From Clostridia bacterium (GTDB taxonomy: Bacteria > Bacillota > Clostridia > UMGS1840), in assembly GCA_045541975.1 (NCBI GenBank), contig JAZQKB010000022.1, forward strand, positions 30,616-94,615: a DNA stretch of 64,000 nucleotides, read 5' to 3'. The stretch's first letter is position 1; the number at the start of each line of letters is the position of its first letter. Shown one piece after another: positions 7,890 through 57,054 of this stretch. Position numbers and translations under genes: made by a program. Below the pieces are notes generated by a model. The model was not told the origin of the DNA and did not search any database. It was given only the letters and a program-made list of their open reading frames with translations.

Positions 7890-8522
7890 TTAATAACTTC
7901 TGAAAAGTCCGACGACCTTTCCCAAAATGGTGAGCTGCGTGGTAATGATGGGTTCCATAGTGTCATTTTCCGGCTGCAGACGGAAATAACCGTTTTCCTT
8001 GTAGAAGGTTTTTACCGTTACTTCATCGTTAATCATAGCAACCACCTTTTCGCCGTTTTCAGCGGTAGGCTGGCGGGCAACAATAATCAAATCACCGTTT
8101 AAAATACCGGCGTTAATCATACTTTCGCCCTGTACTCGTAACATGAACATTTCCTGGTTGGTTGCCATATCCATGGGAAGCGGGAAGGTTCTTTCAATAT
8201 TTTCCACCGCTAAAATCGGGCTTCCTGCCGCAACTTTACCAACAAGGGGGACTTCCAAAATATCGGGGTTTTTGGAATCCTTCGGCACAAATTCGGTGAC
8301 GGTGGCTTCCTTAACAACCGAAATCGCTCTGTTTTTGGCAGAGCTTTTGTTTAATACCCCTTTTTCTTCTAAATTTTTTAAATGGGTAAACACGGTGGCG
8401 GTGGAGCGAAGTCCAACCCCGATACAAATATCACGAACGGTGGGGGGGTACCCGTTTTTTTCCTGGAAATCATTAATGAAATCTAAAATCAGCTTTTGTT
8501 TTTTGGTTAATTCCATATCCAT
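7890..8522 (-). CDS. lexA: SOS repressor LexA
   Basis: Winged-helix GYPPTVRDI; VAAGSP cleavage site; GESM and VTVK catalytic Ser/Lys. Confidence 0.97.
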   Translation of the reverse strand: MDMELTKKQKLILDFINDFQEKNGYPPTVRDICIGVGLRSTATVFTHLKNLEEKGVLNKSSAKNRAISVVKEATVTEFVPKDSKNPDILEVPLVGKVAAGSPILAVENIERTFPLPMDMATNQEMFMLRVQGESMINAGILNGDLIIVARQPTAENGEKVVAMINDEVTVKTFYKENGYFRLQPENDTMEPIITTQLTILGKVVGLFRSY

Positions 8523-8627
8523 AAAGCGATGACTCCTTTTTTATATTTTGCAACAGTCTGCTCTTTTTATTACTAAAATACTGTTATTTCGAGCATTTTT
8601 GTGGTGCTTTTTTCAACTTGTATCTAC

Positions 8628-8744
8628 ATTATAACACAGGATTTCACATTTGTCAAACATTTGTTTGTAATTTTTTCAAAAAAAGTATTGACAAGAACAA
8701 ATGTTTGTGTTACAATAACCTCAGAAAAGGAAAACAAATGTTTG
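8628..8744. promoter_or_regulatory. Divergent sigmaA promoters of lexA and the yneA-like gene, with three LexA (SOS) boxes
   Basis: Minus strand TTGACA (8656-8651)-17-TATAAT (8633-8628). Plus strand TTGACA (8688-8693)-17-TACAAT (8711-8716). Boxes CAAACATTTGTTTG (8654), AGAACAAATGTTTG (8694) and AAAACAAATGTTTG (8731). Confidence 0.85.
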
Positions 8745-8763
8745 CTTTTAGGAGGAAATACAG

Positions 8764-9042
8764 ATGAGATTAACGAAAAAAGGAAAAAGATGTTTGCTTT
8801 TTGTTTTGGTAACGATTTTATTAACAACAGTTGTTGCAATGAATATTGGCGCATCTGCAAGTGAAGAAAATGTGCAGTACATTTCTCACATTGTGGAACC
8901 TAACGATACTTTATGGAGCATTGCAGAAGAATACGGCACCGACGGTGATATCCGCAAAACCATTTATGATATCAAGCGGTTGAATCAGTTAGAGGGTTCC
9001 GATTTGATAGTAGGCACCAGAATTTTAATTGCCGTTTCATAA
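8764..9042 (+). CDS. LysM-domain membrane protein, YneA-like SOS division inhibitor
   Basis: N-terminal TM helix plus LysM (HIVEPNDTLWSIA...LIVG); divergent from lexA as in Bacillus. Confidence 0.8.
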   Translation: MRLTKKGKRCLLFVLVTILLTTVVAMNIGASASEENVQYISHIVEPNDTLWSIAEEYGTDGDIRKTIYDIKRLNQLEGSDLIVGTRILIAVS

Positions 9043-27876: not shown

Positions 27877-27915
27877 AAAAAAGGAACTGCTCCCGAGGGA
27901 TGCAGTTCCTTTTTT
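27877..27915. terminator. Bidirectional intrinsic terminator
   Basis: AAAAAAGGAACTGC...GCAGTTCCTTTTTT between convergent genes. Confidence 0.85.
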
Positions 27916-27969: not shown

Positions 27970-28200
27970 TCAGGATTGTGTTACCAGGGCTTCCTTAGAT
28001 TCCTTAATGGCAACATCCAGCCGTTTTTTTGCCAGGTTTAAATTCATAATGGCGATATCAATATATTCATCCCGGGTAACTTCGTTAAATTTACTCCAGG
28101 CAATGGCAACCTCCTGCTTTGCTTCCATCACTGCGTCATAGGAGGGGTTTTCTTCCGGCTTTTGAAATAACGATGCAATTTTTTTAAATAAGTTTTCCAT
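27970..28200 (-). CDS. DUF2508/YaaL-like small protein
   Basis: AKQE...A...FNEVT.DEYIDIAI..L..A..R pattern typical of YaaL; RBS GAAAGGCGG. Confidence 0.7.
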   Translation of the reverse strand: MENLFKKIASLFQKPEENPSYDAVMEAKQEVAIAWSKFNEVTRDEYIDIAIMNLNLAKKRLDVAIKESKEALVTQS

Positions 28201-28234
28201 TCGGGTTCCGCCTTTCTCACAGTTTTTCTATCCA

Positions 28235-28264
28235 AAGTATATTCCATTTTTATGAAAAATATAC
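28235..28264 (-). promoter_or_regulatory. sigmaG/sigmaF-like promoter of the yaaL-like gene
   Basis: Minus strand GTATA-18-TATACTT, directly after the portal stop codon. Confidence 0.45.
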
Positions 28265-28267
28265 CTG

Positions 28268-30136
28268 TTACACAGTTTTTTCATTAGCTGCTACCAGATA
28301 ATTTTCATGTTCGCTAAGATGCTGTTCCCAAAGCGTTGCAAGGGTGGGATCTTTTGTTTCCAGTTCTTCAAATTCGGAGGTCATCATGTATTTGGTATGT
28401 TCTTCCATATGAATTTCGTGATGATCTCTTGCTTTGACGGGGCATGGAATTTTTTCACGCATTTTCAGATTTTCCCGGGCGGCTTTTGTAGCGTGAAGGG
28501 TTTCGGATTCCATTTTGTTTTCCCAGTCTCCCATTTTCAGCATAGAAAGAATTTTAGATTTGGCACAAGGGGTAATTCTACCGGTTTTAGGATCGGTAAA
28601 AAGTCCCATAGCATAGAGTTCCCGAATCAACTCACGTTTTACCGCCAGAGAGTTTTCAATCTCGTTTTGTGTGGTTAATTCTAACTGTTCGGGAAGCAGA
28701 TTTGTCTGGCTCCAACGAATCAGAGCATTATCGGTGTCGTCACCGCCTAAATGAAGCATTCTTTCAAATAACGCAAACTGACGGTATAATCGCAACCACT
28801 GTTTTGCCACCTCCAACACGGCGTTTCGGATATTTTCCGCACTGACAGCCAGACGGTTATCATCCTGCTGGGATAAAATGCTCAATGCCGTTCCCGAGGT
28901 TACATTAGCGGGTGCTGAAGAATAGCGTGACAGCTCCGAAATGCCGGAAATGGAAACAAACGCTTCTTCCAGACGGTCCTGTTTGGATAAAAAGCTGTAG
29001 GGAAGGGCAGGCGTATCCATAAAGCGGGGCGGTTCGCTGCCTCGCAAATACACAATAGGCATTCCGGGTGGCATTCCATAGTATTCCAAGCTATCTACAT
29101 CTACGCTGCCGTCTTCAATTACGGGGATTCCCAAAGCGGCACGGTTTAAGTATTCGTTGATGCGGTTCTGAATAGCGTTGTAGTCTCTTTGGATGGGAAT
29201 TAAGCGTTCAATGATACTGGTTCCGAAAAAACAACCGGGACGGGATACAGATACCTGCTTCACAAAGGGATACCCTCTGGTGCGATACTTGGCATTTAAG
29301 TAAGGGAGAGGTCCTTCGTACAGTAGCACTTCGTTATAGTATGCCACAATCAGCAGACGACCGTCAGGATGTTTTTTCGTGGGTTTTTCATAGTATTCCA
29401 GCACAATGTCGTAGCCATCTTTGGTTTCTTGCCCCACGCTTTCCAGACTGCCTGTCCAGCCAAGACCGCCCGTGACATTGGTCACGTTGGTCATAGAAAA
29501 CAGATTCACAGAAAATCCCTTTAATTCTGCACCCCATTTTTCTTTGATTTCGTCCACATGGTAGGGGTGAGCATGGATGATGCTTCTTTGCTCTGAAACT
29601 TGCTCTGTGTAAAGGCTTTCAGGATAAATCTCATAGGGACTCAGCACCACCGTGTCCACTTCTCCCGACTTAACGGGAGCACCGTCACTAAGGCAAAGAA
29701 AATCTCCCTGGTCCTTTTGCCATACCGTTTTATAGAATGCAGTCCCTAACAATTCCGACACAGAAACTGCGGTGGCAATTTTTTCGGGAAAGTTCAGTTG
29801 CTTGGAAACTGTTTTCAAAACGGCTGTGGAAATTTTTGCGTTGGCAATATCGTTTAAATCGGAGCTGTCTGTGGTGGCACCAATTTGGGGAACCACACCG
29901 GAAAGCTTTGCCACTCTGGTCTCCATAATGGGCGCAATGTTGTTGTAAACAGCACGTTCTTGATAATCGTACAGTTTTTCAACGGAATAAATTTTTCTGC
30001 CGTTGTAGTCTACATCGCAATACTGATTTCCGTTTAGGAAATTAATATTCAGATTCCATTTTAATTCCAGTTGATTTCGCTTTTCCTTGCGGTCATTAAA
30101 TTCATGACAGACAAATAAAGCCAAGTTTTCAGGCAT
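28268..30136 (-). CDS. Phage portal protein-like (P22/podovirus-type head-tail connector), stand-alone
   Basis: 622 aa with W.LN..F..GNQY, N.I.P....RVAKL, GTAFYK..W, G.V....LSPYEIYP, YPF......PG.F.G.S.IERLIP.Q...N, ISG.S..S.....SG.AL..L..QD and a C-terminal H..H..EH, in the order seen in portal proteins. Confidence 0.72.
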   Translation of the reverse strand: MPENLALFVCHEFNDRKEKRNQLELKWNLNINFLNGNQYCDVDYNGRKIYSVEKLYDYQERAVYNNIAPIMETRVAKLSGVVPQIGATTDSSDLNDIANAKISTAVLKTVSKQLNFPEKIATAVSVSELLGTAFYKTVWQKDQGDFLCLSDGAPVKSGEVDTVVLSPYEIYPESLYTEQVSEQRSIIHAHPYHVDEIKEKWGAELKGFSVNLFSMTNVTNVTGGLGWTGSLESVGQETKDGYDIVLEYYEKPTKKHPDGRLLIVAYYNEVLLYEGPLPYLNAKYRTRGYPFVKQVSVSRPGCFFGTSIIERLIPIQRDYNAIQNRINEYLNRAALGIPVIEDGSVDVDSLEYYGMPPGMPIVYLRGSEPPRFMDTPALPYSFLSKQDRLEEAFVSISGISELSRYSSAPANVTSGTALSILSQQDDNRLAVSAENIRNAVLEVAKQWLRLYRQFALFERMLHLGGDDTDNALIRWSQTNLLPEQLELTTQNEIENSLAVKRELIRELYAMGLFTDPKTGRITPCAKSKILSMLKMGDWENKMESETLHATKAARENLKMREKIPCPVKARDHHEIHMEEHTKYMMTSEFEELETKDPTLATLWEQHLSEHENYLVAANEKTV

Positions 30137-30380
30137 TGTTTTTTTCCTCTGTCACTTTTGCAAAATAGGGCTTCTGGTTTACCATTCCGCGTTTGATGGC
30201 AGACTGCTTCATCTTCTTTAAACGGCTTAAGAGCTGCTGCTGTTTTTTCTTTTTTGCTTCTTCCTCTTTTTTTTGCTGGGCAATTATCTTTGCATTGTTG
30301 TCGGTGTGATTGGGACTGTAAAGATTATAGGCTCTGTTATAGCTTTTGTACTTTTCCTGTTCTTCTTTGGTAAGATTCAT
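30129..30380 (-). CDS. Hypothetical basic, coiled-coil protein, translationally coupled to the portal-like gene
   Basis: RBS GAGGTG; Lys/Gln-rich helix; overlaps the portal start by 8 nt. Confidence 0.65.
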   Translation of the reverse strand: MNLTKEEQEKYKSYNRAYNLYSPNHTDNNAKIIAQQKKEEEAKKKKQQQLLSRLKKMKQSAIKRGMVNQKPYFAKVTEEKNNA

Positions 30381-30421
30381 ACTTTCACCTCAAAATAATA
30401 AAAATATTTCCGCACTACTCC

Positions 30422-30455
30422 ACCAAAGAATACCAAAGATGCTCTTTTGTTTCAA
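30422..30455 (-). promoter_or_regulatory. sigmaA-like promoter of the hypothetical-portal pair, with a direct repeat over the -10
   Basis: Minus strand TTGAAA (30455-30450)-17-TGgTATTCT (30432-30427). ACCAAAGA is repeated at 30422 and 30432. Confidence 0.55.
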
Positions 30456-30480: not shown

Positions 30481-30987
30481 TCAGTTTGTTTCAATGATTT
30501 TTAAGTTTTTCGGATCAATGCCGGCTTCGTTTTTCATAGTGTCCCGAATTTGCGCAATTTCCTGGGGGGTTAATCCTGTAGACTGTACGCTGACGGTGGC
30601 ATCGGGAGAACTTAAAAACACATGCACATTTACAAATCCTTTTTCGGTAAGAATCCGCTCTGCTAAGGTTTCCTTTTCCATATCCTTGGCAATTCGGATC
30701 ATTTCATCCTGCGCTTGGGCTTTTTGCTCAGGGGAGGCATCCTCATTTTCGGATACAGTTTGCAATAAAGCTACTGCTTCGCTTCTGTCTTTTTCCAACG
30801 TAACATCAGAAGACACATATTTTGCCTCTCCATAGGTGGTGTTTTCATCATAGCTTTCGCTGGCAGGCGGAAGAGACAGAGAAACCGTTTGCGTTTCTGT
30901 GTGGTTTATGTAATTGACCACGCCGGCGGTAGCTAACAGAGCAGTGCAAACCACTGCGGCAATTTTTCTTTTGTGTAATAAAATCAT
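30481..30987 (-). CDS. spoIIIAH: Stage III sporulation protein AH
   Basis: N-terminal TM, GEAKYV, EKE...E.IL..KGF and IAQI.D motifs; last gene of the spoIIIA operon. Confidence 0.85.
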   Translation of the reverse strand: MILLHKRKIAAVVCTALLATAGVVNYINHTETQTVSLSLPPASESYDENTTYGEAKYVSSDVTLEKDRSEAVALLQTVSENEDASPEQKAQAQDEMIRIAKDMEKETLAERILTEKGFVNVHVFLSSPDATVSVQSTGLTPQEIAQIRDTMKNEAGIDPKNLKIIETN

Positions 30988-56142: not shown

Positions 56143-56361
56143 TTATAAAACTTGGTTTTTGGCAACTGATTTGATGTCTTCGGAAATTTTTTCTAAGGTT
56201 TGTGAAATCTTTTCCAGCCGGTCAGATTGACTGTCCACAATAGACATCAATCGTTCCTCACGTTCTTTTGATTCCTTCTGATAAGTAAAAAATAACCAGA
56301 TGAATAACGCAGCAAAAACACCTTGTCCCATTACCATTTCCATTAATGCCTGTATGTCCAT
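56143..56361 (-). CDS. BhlA/UviB-family holin-like protein
   Basis: QGVFAALFIWLFF...KESKEREERL motif plus coiled coil. Confidence 0.88.
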   Translation of the reverse strand: MDIQALMEMVMGQGVFAALFIWLFFTYQKESKEREERLMSIVDSQSDRLEKISQTLEKISEDIKSVAKNQVL

Positions 56362-56364
56362 ATG

Positions 56365-57054
56365 TTACTCCTTCTCGTAGCTTTCGAGCATTTTTTGATA
56401 TAAATCCTTGCGGTAGGGATGTTGGTCCAGTAATAAAAAAACCGGTTCGGGATTGGATAACTGCCATTTTTCTGAAAGCTTTGTTTTCACAGATTGCAGC
56501 TCGTCTTGGATTGCGATGCCTAAAAACTTCAAAATTCCTATGGCAATTGCAGATGCAAATTCTTCCGGTTTGGTCTTTAAAAGATTAGCGTCTGCCGGAT
56601 GGTCTAAAAAAGCAGTTTCCACTAAAATAGCAGGGCAGAGAGTTTCTCTTAACACCAAAAGATTCGCATTTTTGACTCCACGGGAGCGAAGATTCAAGTT
56701 TTTAATCAGCTCTCCAAGTACCGATTCTCCCATCTTTTCTGCTTGACCGCCTTTTTGAATGACCAATACTTCCGTTCCGGTTCCGCCACCTGCGTTGCAA
56801 TGAATGGAAATGAAGTAATCGCATCCTGCCTGATTAGAAATTTCGGCACGCTTTTTTAAACTGCTGTTCACAGATGTGCCTAAATTTTGGGTAGCGGATT
56901 CTCTGGTCAATATCGTTTGAATTTGGTATGCATTCAGAATTTCAGAAAGTTTTTCTGCAATCTGAAAGGTAATATCCTGTTCCTTCAAATGATTTGCCAC
57001 AGCACCGGTATCCCATCCCGAATGGTTGTGACCTGCATCAATACAGATTTTCAT
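56365..57054 (-). CDS. N-acetylmuramoyl-L-alanine amidase (Amidase_3), endolysin-like
   Basis: IDAGH...DTGA, E, ISIHCNA and ILVETAF motifs; no signal peptide; short helical C-terminal domain. Confidence 0.9.
   Translation of the reverse strand: MKICIDAGHNHSGWDTGAVANHLKEQDITFQIAEKLSEILNAYQIQTILTRESATQNLGTSVNSSLKKRAEISNQAGCDYFISIHCNAGGGTGTEVLVIQKGGQAEKMGESVLGELIKNLNLRSRGVKNANLLVLRETLCPAILVETAFLDHPADANLLKTKPEEFASAIAIGILKFLGIAIQDELQSVKTKLSEKWQLSNPEPVFLLLDQHPYRKDLYQKMLESYEKE

Follow-up and report, generated by a model that had tools for sequence, protein, structure and literature searches.

A Podovirus-Type Portal Gene Beside the spoIIIA Operon of a Gut Clostridia Bacterium Is Probably Part of a Scattered, Phage-Derived Particle System

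Introduction

How does a bacterium come to keep the gene for a phage portal protein when no terminase, capsid or tail gene stands beside it? The question is raised by a 64,000-nucleotide stretch of DNA (hereafter, the window) from a Clostridia bacterium (assembly GCA_045541975.1, contig JAZQKB010000022.1, positions 30,616 to 94,615), in which an open reading frame (ORF) with the character of a portal gene is located between the spoIIIA sporulation operon and a small gene resembling yaaL. A first-pass annotation, made from the sequence alone, had viewed this ORF as a domesticated portal maintained by the host and had offered two explanations for it: one piece of a dispersed particle akin to a gene transfer agent (GTA), or a ring channel co-opted during sporulation. 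A lone portal looks inexplicable without its scattered partners, and a search for such partners forms the core of the analysis presented here.

We consider it likely that the portal is one component of a phage-derived particle system that is fixed in its host and whose genes are distributed over at least three chromosomal sites, the particle being either GTA-like, of the type described in Faecalibacterium prausnitzii (FpGTA; Borodovich et al., Nat Commun 2026, PMC12946183), or PBSX-like. What is new here is the portal locus with its empty-site control, a packaging operon with a predicted LexA box and a regulator gene, and a probable lysis pair. The genome to which the window belongs (G000) is 97.9% complete and 1.69 Mb in size; the window lies on its contig C22, and C2, C34 and C37 denote other contigs of the same genome. 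Coordinates of the features discussed below are collected in Table 1.

Results and Discussion

The Portal Gene and Its Predicted Fold

The portal gene is an uninterrupted ORF of 622 codons with an ATG start. The full-length, portal-like ORF of the first-pass annotation was thus confirmed, and its strand, which had not been stated, is minus. The product scored above the curated cut-offs of two Pfam portal families, P22_portal (PF16510; 50.1 bits, cut-off 26.1) and SU10_portal (PF23899; 32.5 bits, cut-off 30), and residues 12–495 matched PHROG_156, annotated as “portal protein”, with E 5e-27. When solved structures were approached by sequence profile alone, one portal was reached (8jov, E 2.6e-06).

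A single-chain AlphaFold2 model based on 57 homologs (predicted local distance difference test score 79, predicted template modeling (TM) score 0.72) was compared with the Protein Data Bank (PDB) using Foldseek. Every match listed was a podophage portal, and 159 PDB matches had E ≤ 0.001, so that the portal fold expected in the first-pass annotation was recovered from the model. The top matches were the portals of Pan3 (9vyf, E 1.8e-15) and SU10 (7z44, E 1.2e-14), followed by those of Pa223, GP4, N4, KHP30, T7, P22 and PaP3. The solved portals of Pan3, SU10, P22, T7 and N4 share the fold of the model with Foldseek E-values of 1.8e-15 to 1e-10 and TM-scores of 0.42–0.65, whereas their sequence identity to the protein studied here is 10–16%. 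They also differ in setting: each comes from a complete phage genome in which the portal gene adjoins terminase and head genes, while the portal gene of the window does not. We conclude that the gene is predicted to encode a working podovirus-type portal.

The Portal Gene Is Fixed at One Site Throughout the Genus

Orthologs of the portal (77–94% identity) are present in all ten other genomes of the genus. The site is identical in each of them, between a match to the small ORF that precedes the portal gene in the window (orf83) and a homolog of the yaaL-like gene (orf76). The spoIIIAH and spoIIIAG genes are located upstream in nine genomes; in the tenth, G002, the contig ends at this point and spoIIIAH is found on a different contig. 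The ratio of nonsynonymous to synonymous substitutions (dN/dS) was calculated pairwise by the Nei–Gojobori method, and medians are given throughout. For the portal gene it was 0.054 (range 0.036–0.114; 35 usable of 55 pairs), compared to 0.081, 0.077 and 0.189 for the control genes encoding MgtC, SpoIIIAH and SpoIIIAG, respectively.

Beyond the genus, portal homologs are at most 45% identical. Class-wide, a portal match with E ≤ 1e-20 was obtained in 27 of 399 scored genomes, representing 15 of 216 genera, and within the order the matches outside the genus come down to one prophage-type copy with 34% identity. Of 50,697 GenBank phage records, 14 matched, the nearest phage portal being that of Microbacterium phage Shocker (25% identity). 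Since orthologs are genus-wide, dN/dS is 0.054 and phage homologs are distant, the gene is neither strain-specific nor neutrally evolving nor close to recent prophages, and the proposal of the first-pass annotation that the portal is domesticated and maintained by the host holds.

The family contains a sister genus, in which a homolog of orf76 comes immediately after spoIIIAH, with no portal gene, in four of four loci (L131–L134; a further locus, L142, is cut). Therefore, orf83 and the portal gene together constitute a 2.1-kb insertion specific to the genus, and the empty site confines the insertion event to this genus. Deletion of both genes in the sister genus would be a less simple alternative.

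Partner Genes Are Located at Other Chromosomal Sites

ORFs in the flanks (up to ~10 kb each) of 20 distant portal homologs were clustered; the portal ORF was called in 19 of these loci and recovered by tblastn in the remaining one, L044. The recurrent gene order is c2 (~480 aa), c7, sometimes c15, portal, c4, c1 (~390 aa), c3, c6, c5 and c8, with c2 present in 16 loci and c1 in 17. Those of these loci in other Clostridia families that form compact gene clusters of 9–11 kb have a gene order that matches the description of FpGTA locus I in the accessible parts of PMC12946183.

The G000 genome was searched with the clustered proteins. The c2 cluster, corresponding to the large terminase subunit TerL, gave a single match at C37:63851-65350 (43–55% identity), and c1, corresponding to the capsid protein, a single match at C34:61941-63086 (34–48% identity). 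Next to the latter, c3, c4 and c21/c5 also found matches on C34, and c8 matched window positions 56143-56361. Together with the portal locus (locus A), these matches define locus B on C34 and locus C on C37 (Table 1). Locus C is flanked by a B12-binding-domain gene adjoining argH on one side and by tRNA-Ser on the other. In this way, the first-pass idea of a dispersed, GTA-like particle and the search for scattered single-copy phage genes that it recommended were borne out: one cognate TerL gene on C37 and one scaffold–capsid–nozzle operon on C34, both conserved in the genus, lie amid housekeeping genes.

The TerL protein (448 aa) exceeded the cut-offs of both Terminase_6N (54.2 bits) and Terminase_6C (25 bits) and matched phrog_2; nothing else in the genome matched Terminase_6N. 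The protein aligns to the solved terminase 5oe8, and the aligned part includes stretches that we take to be the Walker B and nuclease motifs. The capsid protein matched phrog_14242 with E 5.6e-57, and the scaffold was paired with cluster c4 by hhalign with 98% probability. For the 596-aa protein, an AlphaFold2 model of high quality was obtained (local score 86, predicted TM-score 0.84), whose 31 top Foldseek matches are nozzle or hub proteins of podophages, including those of Pan3, T7 (gp12), GP4, P22 (gp10) and SU10; only 30 homologs of this protein were present among 5.8 billion proteins. The 166-aa protein of locus C has weak matches to sigma-70 region 4, extracytoplasmic function sigma factors and ArpU. 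The Zn-ribbon protein was paired with c15 with a probability of 15% only, and comparison by hhalign of orf83, orf76, orf115 and the TerS-like protein with 11 selected clusters of small or adjacent proteins (scaffold, adaptor-position and small ORFs) yielded no match.

No matches to other hallmark families (Phage_portal, HK97-type Phage_capsid and TerL_ATPase) were found in G000. A single partial match to SPP1_portal (PF05133, 128.7 bits) is located on the orphan contig C2 (1,894 bp) along with another phage-like ORF; this contig is probably a binned phage or a prophage fragment unrelated to the scattered system. Integrase families gave five matches in the genome, none of them on C22, C34 or C37.

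The match to c8 within the window is part of a fourth locus, D, which consists of an N-acetylmuramoyl-L-alanine amidase gene and a gene for a BhlA-like, holin-like protein, the latter matching the profile of c8, the last gene of the related compact clusters, with E 1.4e-12. The order tagA–amidase–bhlA is syntenic in nine of ten genomes of the genus, with mnmE flanking in six of those nine loci, and the window amidase is 49% identical to an amidase of G009 whose gene is on the prophage contig there, ~12 kb away from the capsid gene. From these sequence relationships, the pair probably belongs to the scattered particle system. The first-pass statement that phage genes are lacking near the portal was upheld for ~10 kb on either side, where the genes are of housekeeping or sporulation type (topA, a GIDA-family gene that we take to be trmFO, a radical SAM gene, alr, rmuC, NAPRT, mgtC and spoIIIA), and is qualified by the amidase–holin pair located 26 kb away within the window.

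The Partner Genes Evolve Under Purifying Selection

The capsid gene is present in all ten genomes of the genus (88–99% identity), with one copy, in G005, cut by a contig end. The order serC, scaffold, capsid, 131-aa, 177-aa and 596-aa genes is preserved in nine of nine full loci, and the cut G005 locus retains the order from capsid to the 596-aa gene. In the order as a whole (25 genomes), all ten genomes of this genus yielded the capsid ortholog, whereas none of nine genomes of the other family, f2, did; in the sister genus, g2, one genome of five carries a 35% identical copy of prophage type. TerL orthologs (85–97% identity) were found in eight of ten genomes of the genus, the operon being syntenic in seven, while in G002 the contig ends inside the TerL gene. 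A search for the 166-aa regulator that was itself rated uninformative returned no match in G009, G005 and G002.

Median dN/dS values were 0.055 for TerL, 0.064 for capsid, 0.063 for the regulator, 0.069 for the Zn-ribbon protein and 0.061 for the 177-aa protein; they were higher for the TerS-like protein (0.109), the 131-aa protein (0.184) and the scaffold (0.27). The values for portal, TerL and capsid (0.05–0.06) are equal to or below those of flanking housekeeping genes, and none of the three genes is truncated or interrupted by a stop codon within the span that was matched.

Trees were built by a quick maximum-likelihood procedure with support from the Shimodaira–Hasegawa-like approximate likelihood ratio test. 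The genus forms a single clade in the portal (support 100), TerL (99) and capsid (100) trees, and the groupings inside the clade broadly agree. Vertical inheritance and a dN/dS well below 1 (0.054–0.064), both of which the first-pass annotation had asked to be examined, are therefore supported for all three genes. In the TerL tree, the compact clusters from three further Clostridia families form the sister group of the genus clade with a support of 98; the capsid tree has the same arrangement with weak support (67).

Two genomes of the genus, G009 (L045, contig C18) and G005 (L046, contig C95), also carry a related full prophage that encodes a DnaB-like helicase, TerL, portal, capsid and a 760-aa nozzle-like protein. 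The portals of these prophages are 36–40% identical to the domesticated portal, and, within the genus, these two carriers alone yielded no domesticated TerL operon.

In five genomes of another family, f46, with sizes of 0.8–1.0 Mb (L049, L050, L053, L054 and L056 in G161, G187, G314, G134 and G073, respectively), a portal–scaffold–capsid–c3–c6–c5 block is present in conserved synteny with no adjoining TerL gene. In L056, a TerL gene is located ~7 kb upstream of the block, and in two loci from other genera of f46 (L048 and L051) TerL is adjacent. The f46 blocks that stand apart from TerL may represent a halfway stage of this fragmentation.

Predicted Regulation and a Model of Particle Production

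Upstream of the Zn-ribbon gene, the first gene of locus C, the promoter sequence TTGACA-17-TATAAT is followed by CGAACATTTGTTCG. This arrangement is kept in nine of nine genus loci, with T replacing C in the last half-site in three of them. We take CGAAC-N4-GTTCG to be the Gram-positive LexA box. The G000 genome contains 25 GAAC-N4-GTTC sites, the full motif is matched at nine or more of its ten positions by 12 sites, and the sole ten-of-ten match in 1.69 Mb is the locus C box at C37:65543; recA has a nine-of-ten site with the same core as this box. The lexA gene itself is located in the window. Its promoter is closely similar to that of the TerL operon, and the region upstream of it (window positions 8523-8800, minus strand) contains at least four tandem LexA-box-like repeats with an AAACA-WW-TGTT core, one of which lies over the -35 element. 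The box at C37:65543 suggests that the packaging operon would be repressed by LexA. A regulatory hypothesis is thereby gained, for a perfect predicted LexA operator is associated with the packaging operon and a sigma-like regulator is encoded within it.

Upstream of the scaffold gene of locus B (C34:63877-64079; ~9878-10080 in L064), a palindrome, TTGTT...AACAA, with TTGTTTAA..TTTTAACAAT, is followed by ATTATACT and TTGTCAA in ten of ten genus loci. This palindrome is a possible activator site.

The following scheme can be envisaged. DNA damage would clear LexA from the box that follows the consensus promoter at locus C, the terminase and the regulator would be produced, and either the regulator or the host sigma-A would switch on the other loci. 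A portal dodecamer would then nucleate assembly of scaffold and capsid, and the terminase would pack host DNA through the portal into small heads. The adaptor and the nozzle would seal the portal, and the amidase and the holin would free the particles. We infer all of these steps, that is, SOS induction, assembly, DNA packaging, lysis and any DNA transfer.

As can be seen, structural and packaging genes are located at fixed host sites unaccompanied by replication, lysogeny or integration genes, and they are inherited vertically under purifying selection (portal and capsid in ten of ten genomes, TerL in eight of ten). Both features are expected of GTA genes, and a gene transfer agent like that of Faecalibacterium is the most likely identity of the scattered set.

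Several points weigh against this interpretation. The TerL ortholog was not found in G005 (77% complete) and G009 (92% complete), where only the TerL of the related prophage was detected. In the portal tree, the genus clade joins the prophage-type clade of G005, G009 and G012 with a support of 93, which is below 95; since the placements in the portal and TerL trees differ, the pieces may or may not stem from a single element. Some of the gene labels are tentative: the TerS-like protein scored 26.4 bits against GP3_package, below the Pfam cut-off of 29.4, and the 177-aa protein is called adaptor-like from its gene position and a weak profile match to c32 (31% by hhalign). The genes of the system include no recognisable tail fibre or receptor-binding protein. 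Inspection by eye of aligned upstream regions revealed neither a LexA-type box nor a common promoter or operator motif at loci A, B and D, so co-regulation of the loci is a guess. The comparison with FpGTA, as far as that system is described in the accessible parts of its publication, covered the kinds of genes and their arrangement. Finally, the genus consists of uncultured animal-gut Clostridia represented solely by metagenome-assembled genomes; FpGTA particles have been seen, whereas particle production in the genus studied here would be deduced from genes alone.

Relation to Known Particle Systems

The description of FpGTA in 2026 provided the first genes tied to GTAs in Gram-positive gut anaerobes. 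According to the parts of the paper available to us (PMC12946183), locus I of FpGTA is a 10.5-kb operon of ten ORFs that encode a TerS without a DNA-binding domain, TerL, portal, scaffold, capsid and conserved hypothetical proteins, and locus II, a 5.5-kb operon located ~125 kb away, contains tail-fibre, receptor-binding, holin and endolysin genes. The particles are podovirus-like, ~40 nm in size, and contain 8.4–8.9 kb of DNA. The operon is present in 12 of 12 Faecalibacterium genomes examined, its portal and capsid proteins being RCH50851.1 and RCH50849.1, and GTA production is stated to be tied to the SOS response in some systems (PMC12946183).

Within what those parts describe, the scattered set resembles FpGTA in belonging to gut Clostridia, in combining TerS-like, TerL, portal, scaffold, capsid and short-tail genes (with weak TerS-like and adaptor calls here), in containing no replication or integration genes, in being spread over at least two loci, with the lysis genes away from the head genes, and in being nearly universal in its genus. 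It differs in that head and packaging genes are distributed over three sites (TerL on C37, portal on C22 and capsid on C34) instead of one operon of ~10.5 kb, in the predicted LexA operator and the sigma-like regulator, neither of which is reported for FpGTA in the sections available, and in that no tail-fibre or receptor-binding locus was found here.

RcGTA of Rhodobacter capsulatus is a siphovirus-like particle of Alphaproteobacteria with an HK97-type head, and its terminase, portal and capsid genes are together in one ~15-kb cluster, whereas in the system described here these genes are separated. In RcGTA (PMC5026251), as in the scattered set, the genes of a domesticated phage particle occupy several chromosomal loci and are inherited vertically. 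With PBSX of Bacillus subtilis, the scattered set shares a Firmicutes host, a phage-derived particle that packages host DNA and SOS induction, the last two being presumed here. PBSX occupies one contiguous prophage-like region and has a long contractile tail, unlike the podovirus-like and split system of this genus. In the available parts of PMC12946183, PBSX is referred to as a GTA-like defective prophage.

It follows from the scattered arrangement that core genes for terminase, portal and capsid can each sit apart amid housekeeping genes, where they would escape prophage finders and GTA searches that rely on gene clusters. For annotation, the lesson is that a “stand-alone” phage structural gene under purifying selection calls for a search of the whole genome for its partners.

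Alternative Explanations

The same set of genes could build a killing or decoy device, a PBSX-like particle that packages DNA without delivering it and acts like a bacteriocin or in connection with lysis. Such an outcome strikes us as rather unlikely, yet of the alternatives it agrees best with the data: the predicted SOS control resembles PBSX induction, and no receptor-binding or ejection proteins were identified. Against it, purifying selection has preserved an adaptor-like protein and a nozzle, which in podophages form the channel through which DNA leaves. Sequence does not separate delivery from non-delivery, and for FpGTA the Discussion of PMC12946183, in the part available, leaves the question of delivery standing likewise.

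Two further explanations draw on the position of the portal gene behind the spoIIIA operon. This eight-gene operon (SpoIIIAH, SpoIIIAA and SpoIIIAE being confirmed by Pfam) lies upstream of the portal gene on the same strand. A pattern scan of the minus strand found no terminator-like site between spoIIIAH and orf83, and the spoIIIAH–portal neighbourhood is seen in nine of ten genus loci, the locus of G002 being contig-cut. A metatranscriptome library, X2, contains two short contigs from the locus (window positions 28157-28355 and 30279-30441) at a depth of ~2, with the rest of the portal gene uncovered; the second contig extends ~10–20 nt upstream of the predicted -10 element of the portal unit. 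As DNA carry-over may account for both contigs, neither counts as a sign of expression or of read-through. As to the first-pass claim that the portal gene is directly downstream of spoIIIAH, the shared strand and the lack of a terminator-like site stood, whereas direct adjacency did not: orf83 is located between the two genes, the last 8 nt of orf83 are shared with the start of the portal gene, and the orf83–portal unit has a sigma-A-like promoter of its own. The blocks of this sequence, TTGAAA-17-TATTCT, are kept in aligned genus loci between spoIIIAH and orf83, and it is predicted to serve as the promoter of the unit.

If particle output were tied both to LexA and DNA damage and to sigma-E read-through from spoIIIA, the system would be a GTA coupled to endospore formation, with the lysing mother cell doubling as a factory from which DNA-filled particles are freed along with the spore. 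We regard this coupling as improbable. Even less probable, in our opinion, is the sporulation channel of the first-pass annotation, in which the sigma-E spoIIIA transcript would give rise to a portal ring in the mother cell, and this ring would work with, or like, the SpoIIIA–SpoIIQ channel, independently of any capsid. Beside the separate promoter, there is the sister genus, where in four of four loci the spoIIIA operon is complete and orf76 comes next with no portal, and in the rest of the order the portal does not accompany the spoIIIA operon. Since the matches outside the genus are limited to one prophage-type copy, the SpoIIIA channel does not need a portal. The full phage-portal fold is retained, and TerL, capsid, scaffold and nozzle genes are kept at sites unrelated to sporulation under selection that we judge to be equally strong. 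Proposed in the first-pass annotation, the sporulation channel is thus left unsupported. Among the matches inspected in a literature search, no paper linked a portal protein with spoIIIA.

It is likewise very doubtful that the genes belong to a mobile satellite (a capsid-forming chromosomal island) or another helper-dependent element still moving between cells. The combination of TerS, TerL, portal, scaffold, capsid and connector genes does recall capsid-forming islands, and related prophages (L045 and L046) are carried by two members of the genus, but the genes occupy three separate fixed sites with the same housekeeping flanks in every genome, none of the integrase-family matches is on the contigs concerned, and three gene trees each recover the genus as a single clade, with inner branching that broadly agrees. 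That we are dealing with scrambled, functionless remnants of a decaying prophage kept by chance is scarcely credible: the genes of one head module are indeed scattered, replication, lysogeny and integration genes are lacking, and the tRNA-Ser adjoining locus C might be an old attachment site, but portal, TerL and capsid genes are intact, syntenic (portal and capsid in ten of ten genomes, the TerL operon in seven of the eight with a TerL ortholog) and under strong purifying selection (dN/dS 0.05–0.06), and the composition is the same as in the flanks.

Neighbouring Genes and Other Observations

Table 1. Positions of the genes, signals and loci discussed in the text. Positions refer to the window unless a contig of G000 is named.
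Feature	Position	Strand	Basis or content
Portal protein gene, podovirus P22/SU10 type	28268..30136	-	Pfam, PHROG_156, AlphaFold2 and Foldseek, genus orthologs, dN/dS
orf83, Lys-rich 83-aa ORF between spoIIIAH and portal	30129..30380	-	ORF; tblastn in genus loci
Sigma-A-like promoter of orf83–portal unit (predicted), TTGAAA-17-TATTCT, TG before -10	30427..30455	-	Pattern scan and conservation
spoIIIAH, last gene of spoIIIA operon (context)	30481..30987	-	Pfam SpoIIIAH, 87.7 bits
orf76, yaaL/DUF2508-like host gene, outside the phage-derived set	27970..28200	-	Protein-atlas neighbours; position in sister genus
GTATA-N14-GGAATATACT motif, putative forespore-type promoter of orf76	28236..28264	-	Kept in 11/11 genus loci
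Hairpin and T-run terminator after orf76	27877..27909	-	Read from sequence; conserved
lexA, predicted repressor of C37 packaging operon	7890..8522	-	PF01726, 69.6 bits
N-acetylmuramoyl-L-alanine amidase gene, 229 aa, probable endolysin (locus D)	56365..57054	-	Pfam Amidase_3, 142.8 bits
BhlA-family holin-like gene, 72 aa, probable lysis partner (locus D)	56143..56361	-	Pfam Holin_BhlA, 38 bits (cut-off 22.6)
Locus A	28268-30380	-	orf83 and portal, between spoIIIAH and yaaL-like gene
Locus B	G000 C34:58878-63876		Between leuB and serC: scaffold, major capsid, 131-aa, 177-aa adaptor-like, 596-aa tail nozzle, 61-aa ORF
Locus C	G000 C37:62716-65481		Zn-ribbon (68 aa), TerL, orf115, TerS-like (128 aa), 166-aa sigma/ArpU-like regulator, on one strand

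Searches with orf83 yielded no credible match in Pfam, PHROG or NCBIfam, no protein-atlas match, and no hhalign profile match to small proteins of the related clusters. In genus loci, orf83 was matched by tblastn in ten of ten cases (37–81% identity), partially in L009 (32 of 83 residues) and L010 (68 of 83), and its median dN/dS was 0.197.

The orf76 gene encodes 76 amino acids and evolves with a median dN/dS of 0.078. The first-pass annotation had described it as a yaaL-like gene with a forespore-type promoter. The GTATA-N14-GGAATATACT motif upstream of it is conserved, along with a ribosome-binding site, and we take it to be of forespore type by comparison with the sigma-F/G consensus. The other part of the description is less firmly founded: the three nearest named clusters in the protein atlas are DUF2508/YaaL (score 0.88, 198 of 256 shared features), whereas no match to DUF2508 was obtained with Pfam or NCBIfam, and the yaaL/DUF2508-like label is a lead and not proof. 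The gene may be a conserved companion of the spoIIIA locus in the family that is expressed in the forespore. The terminator hairpin located downstream of orf76 shows compensatory changes in its stem and is kept in 11 of 11 loci; it is absent from the pattern-scan list, which we attribute to its 11-nt loop. Transcripts of the portal unit likely also end at this terminator. The GC content is flat across the region (0.40–0.465), and composition is like that of the flanks.

The tRNA gene next to locus C is a tRNA-Ser(GGA) located directly downstream of the regulator gene (positions 4369-4459 of L065, corresponding to ~62368-62458 of C37), a possible ancient phage attachment site. Two observations were made among the distant portal homologs. 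In L051 (G362:C2), the capsid gene occurs twice in tandem (390 and 405 aa) within one compact cluster. In L039/L043 (G143:C5:106801-108699), the portal homolog matches as two adjacent pieces that correspond to residues 3-170 and 157-611 of the query, which may reflect a frameshift, a split gene or an artefact of search reporting.

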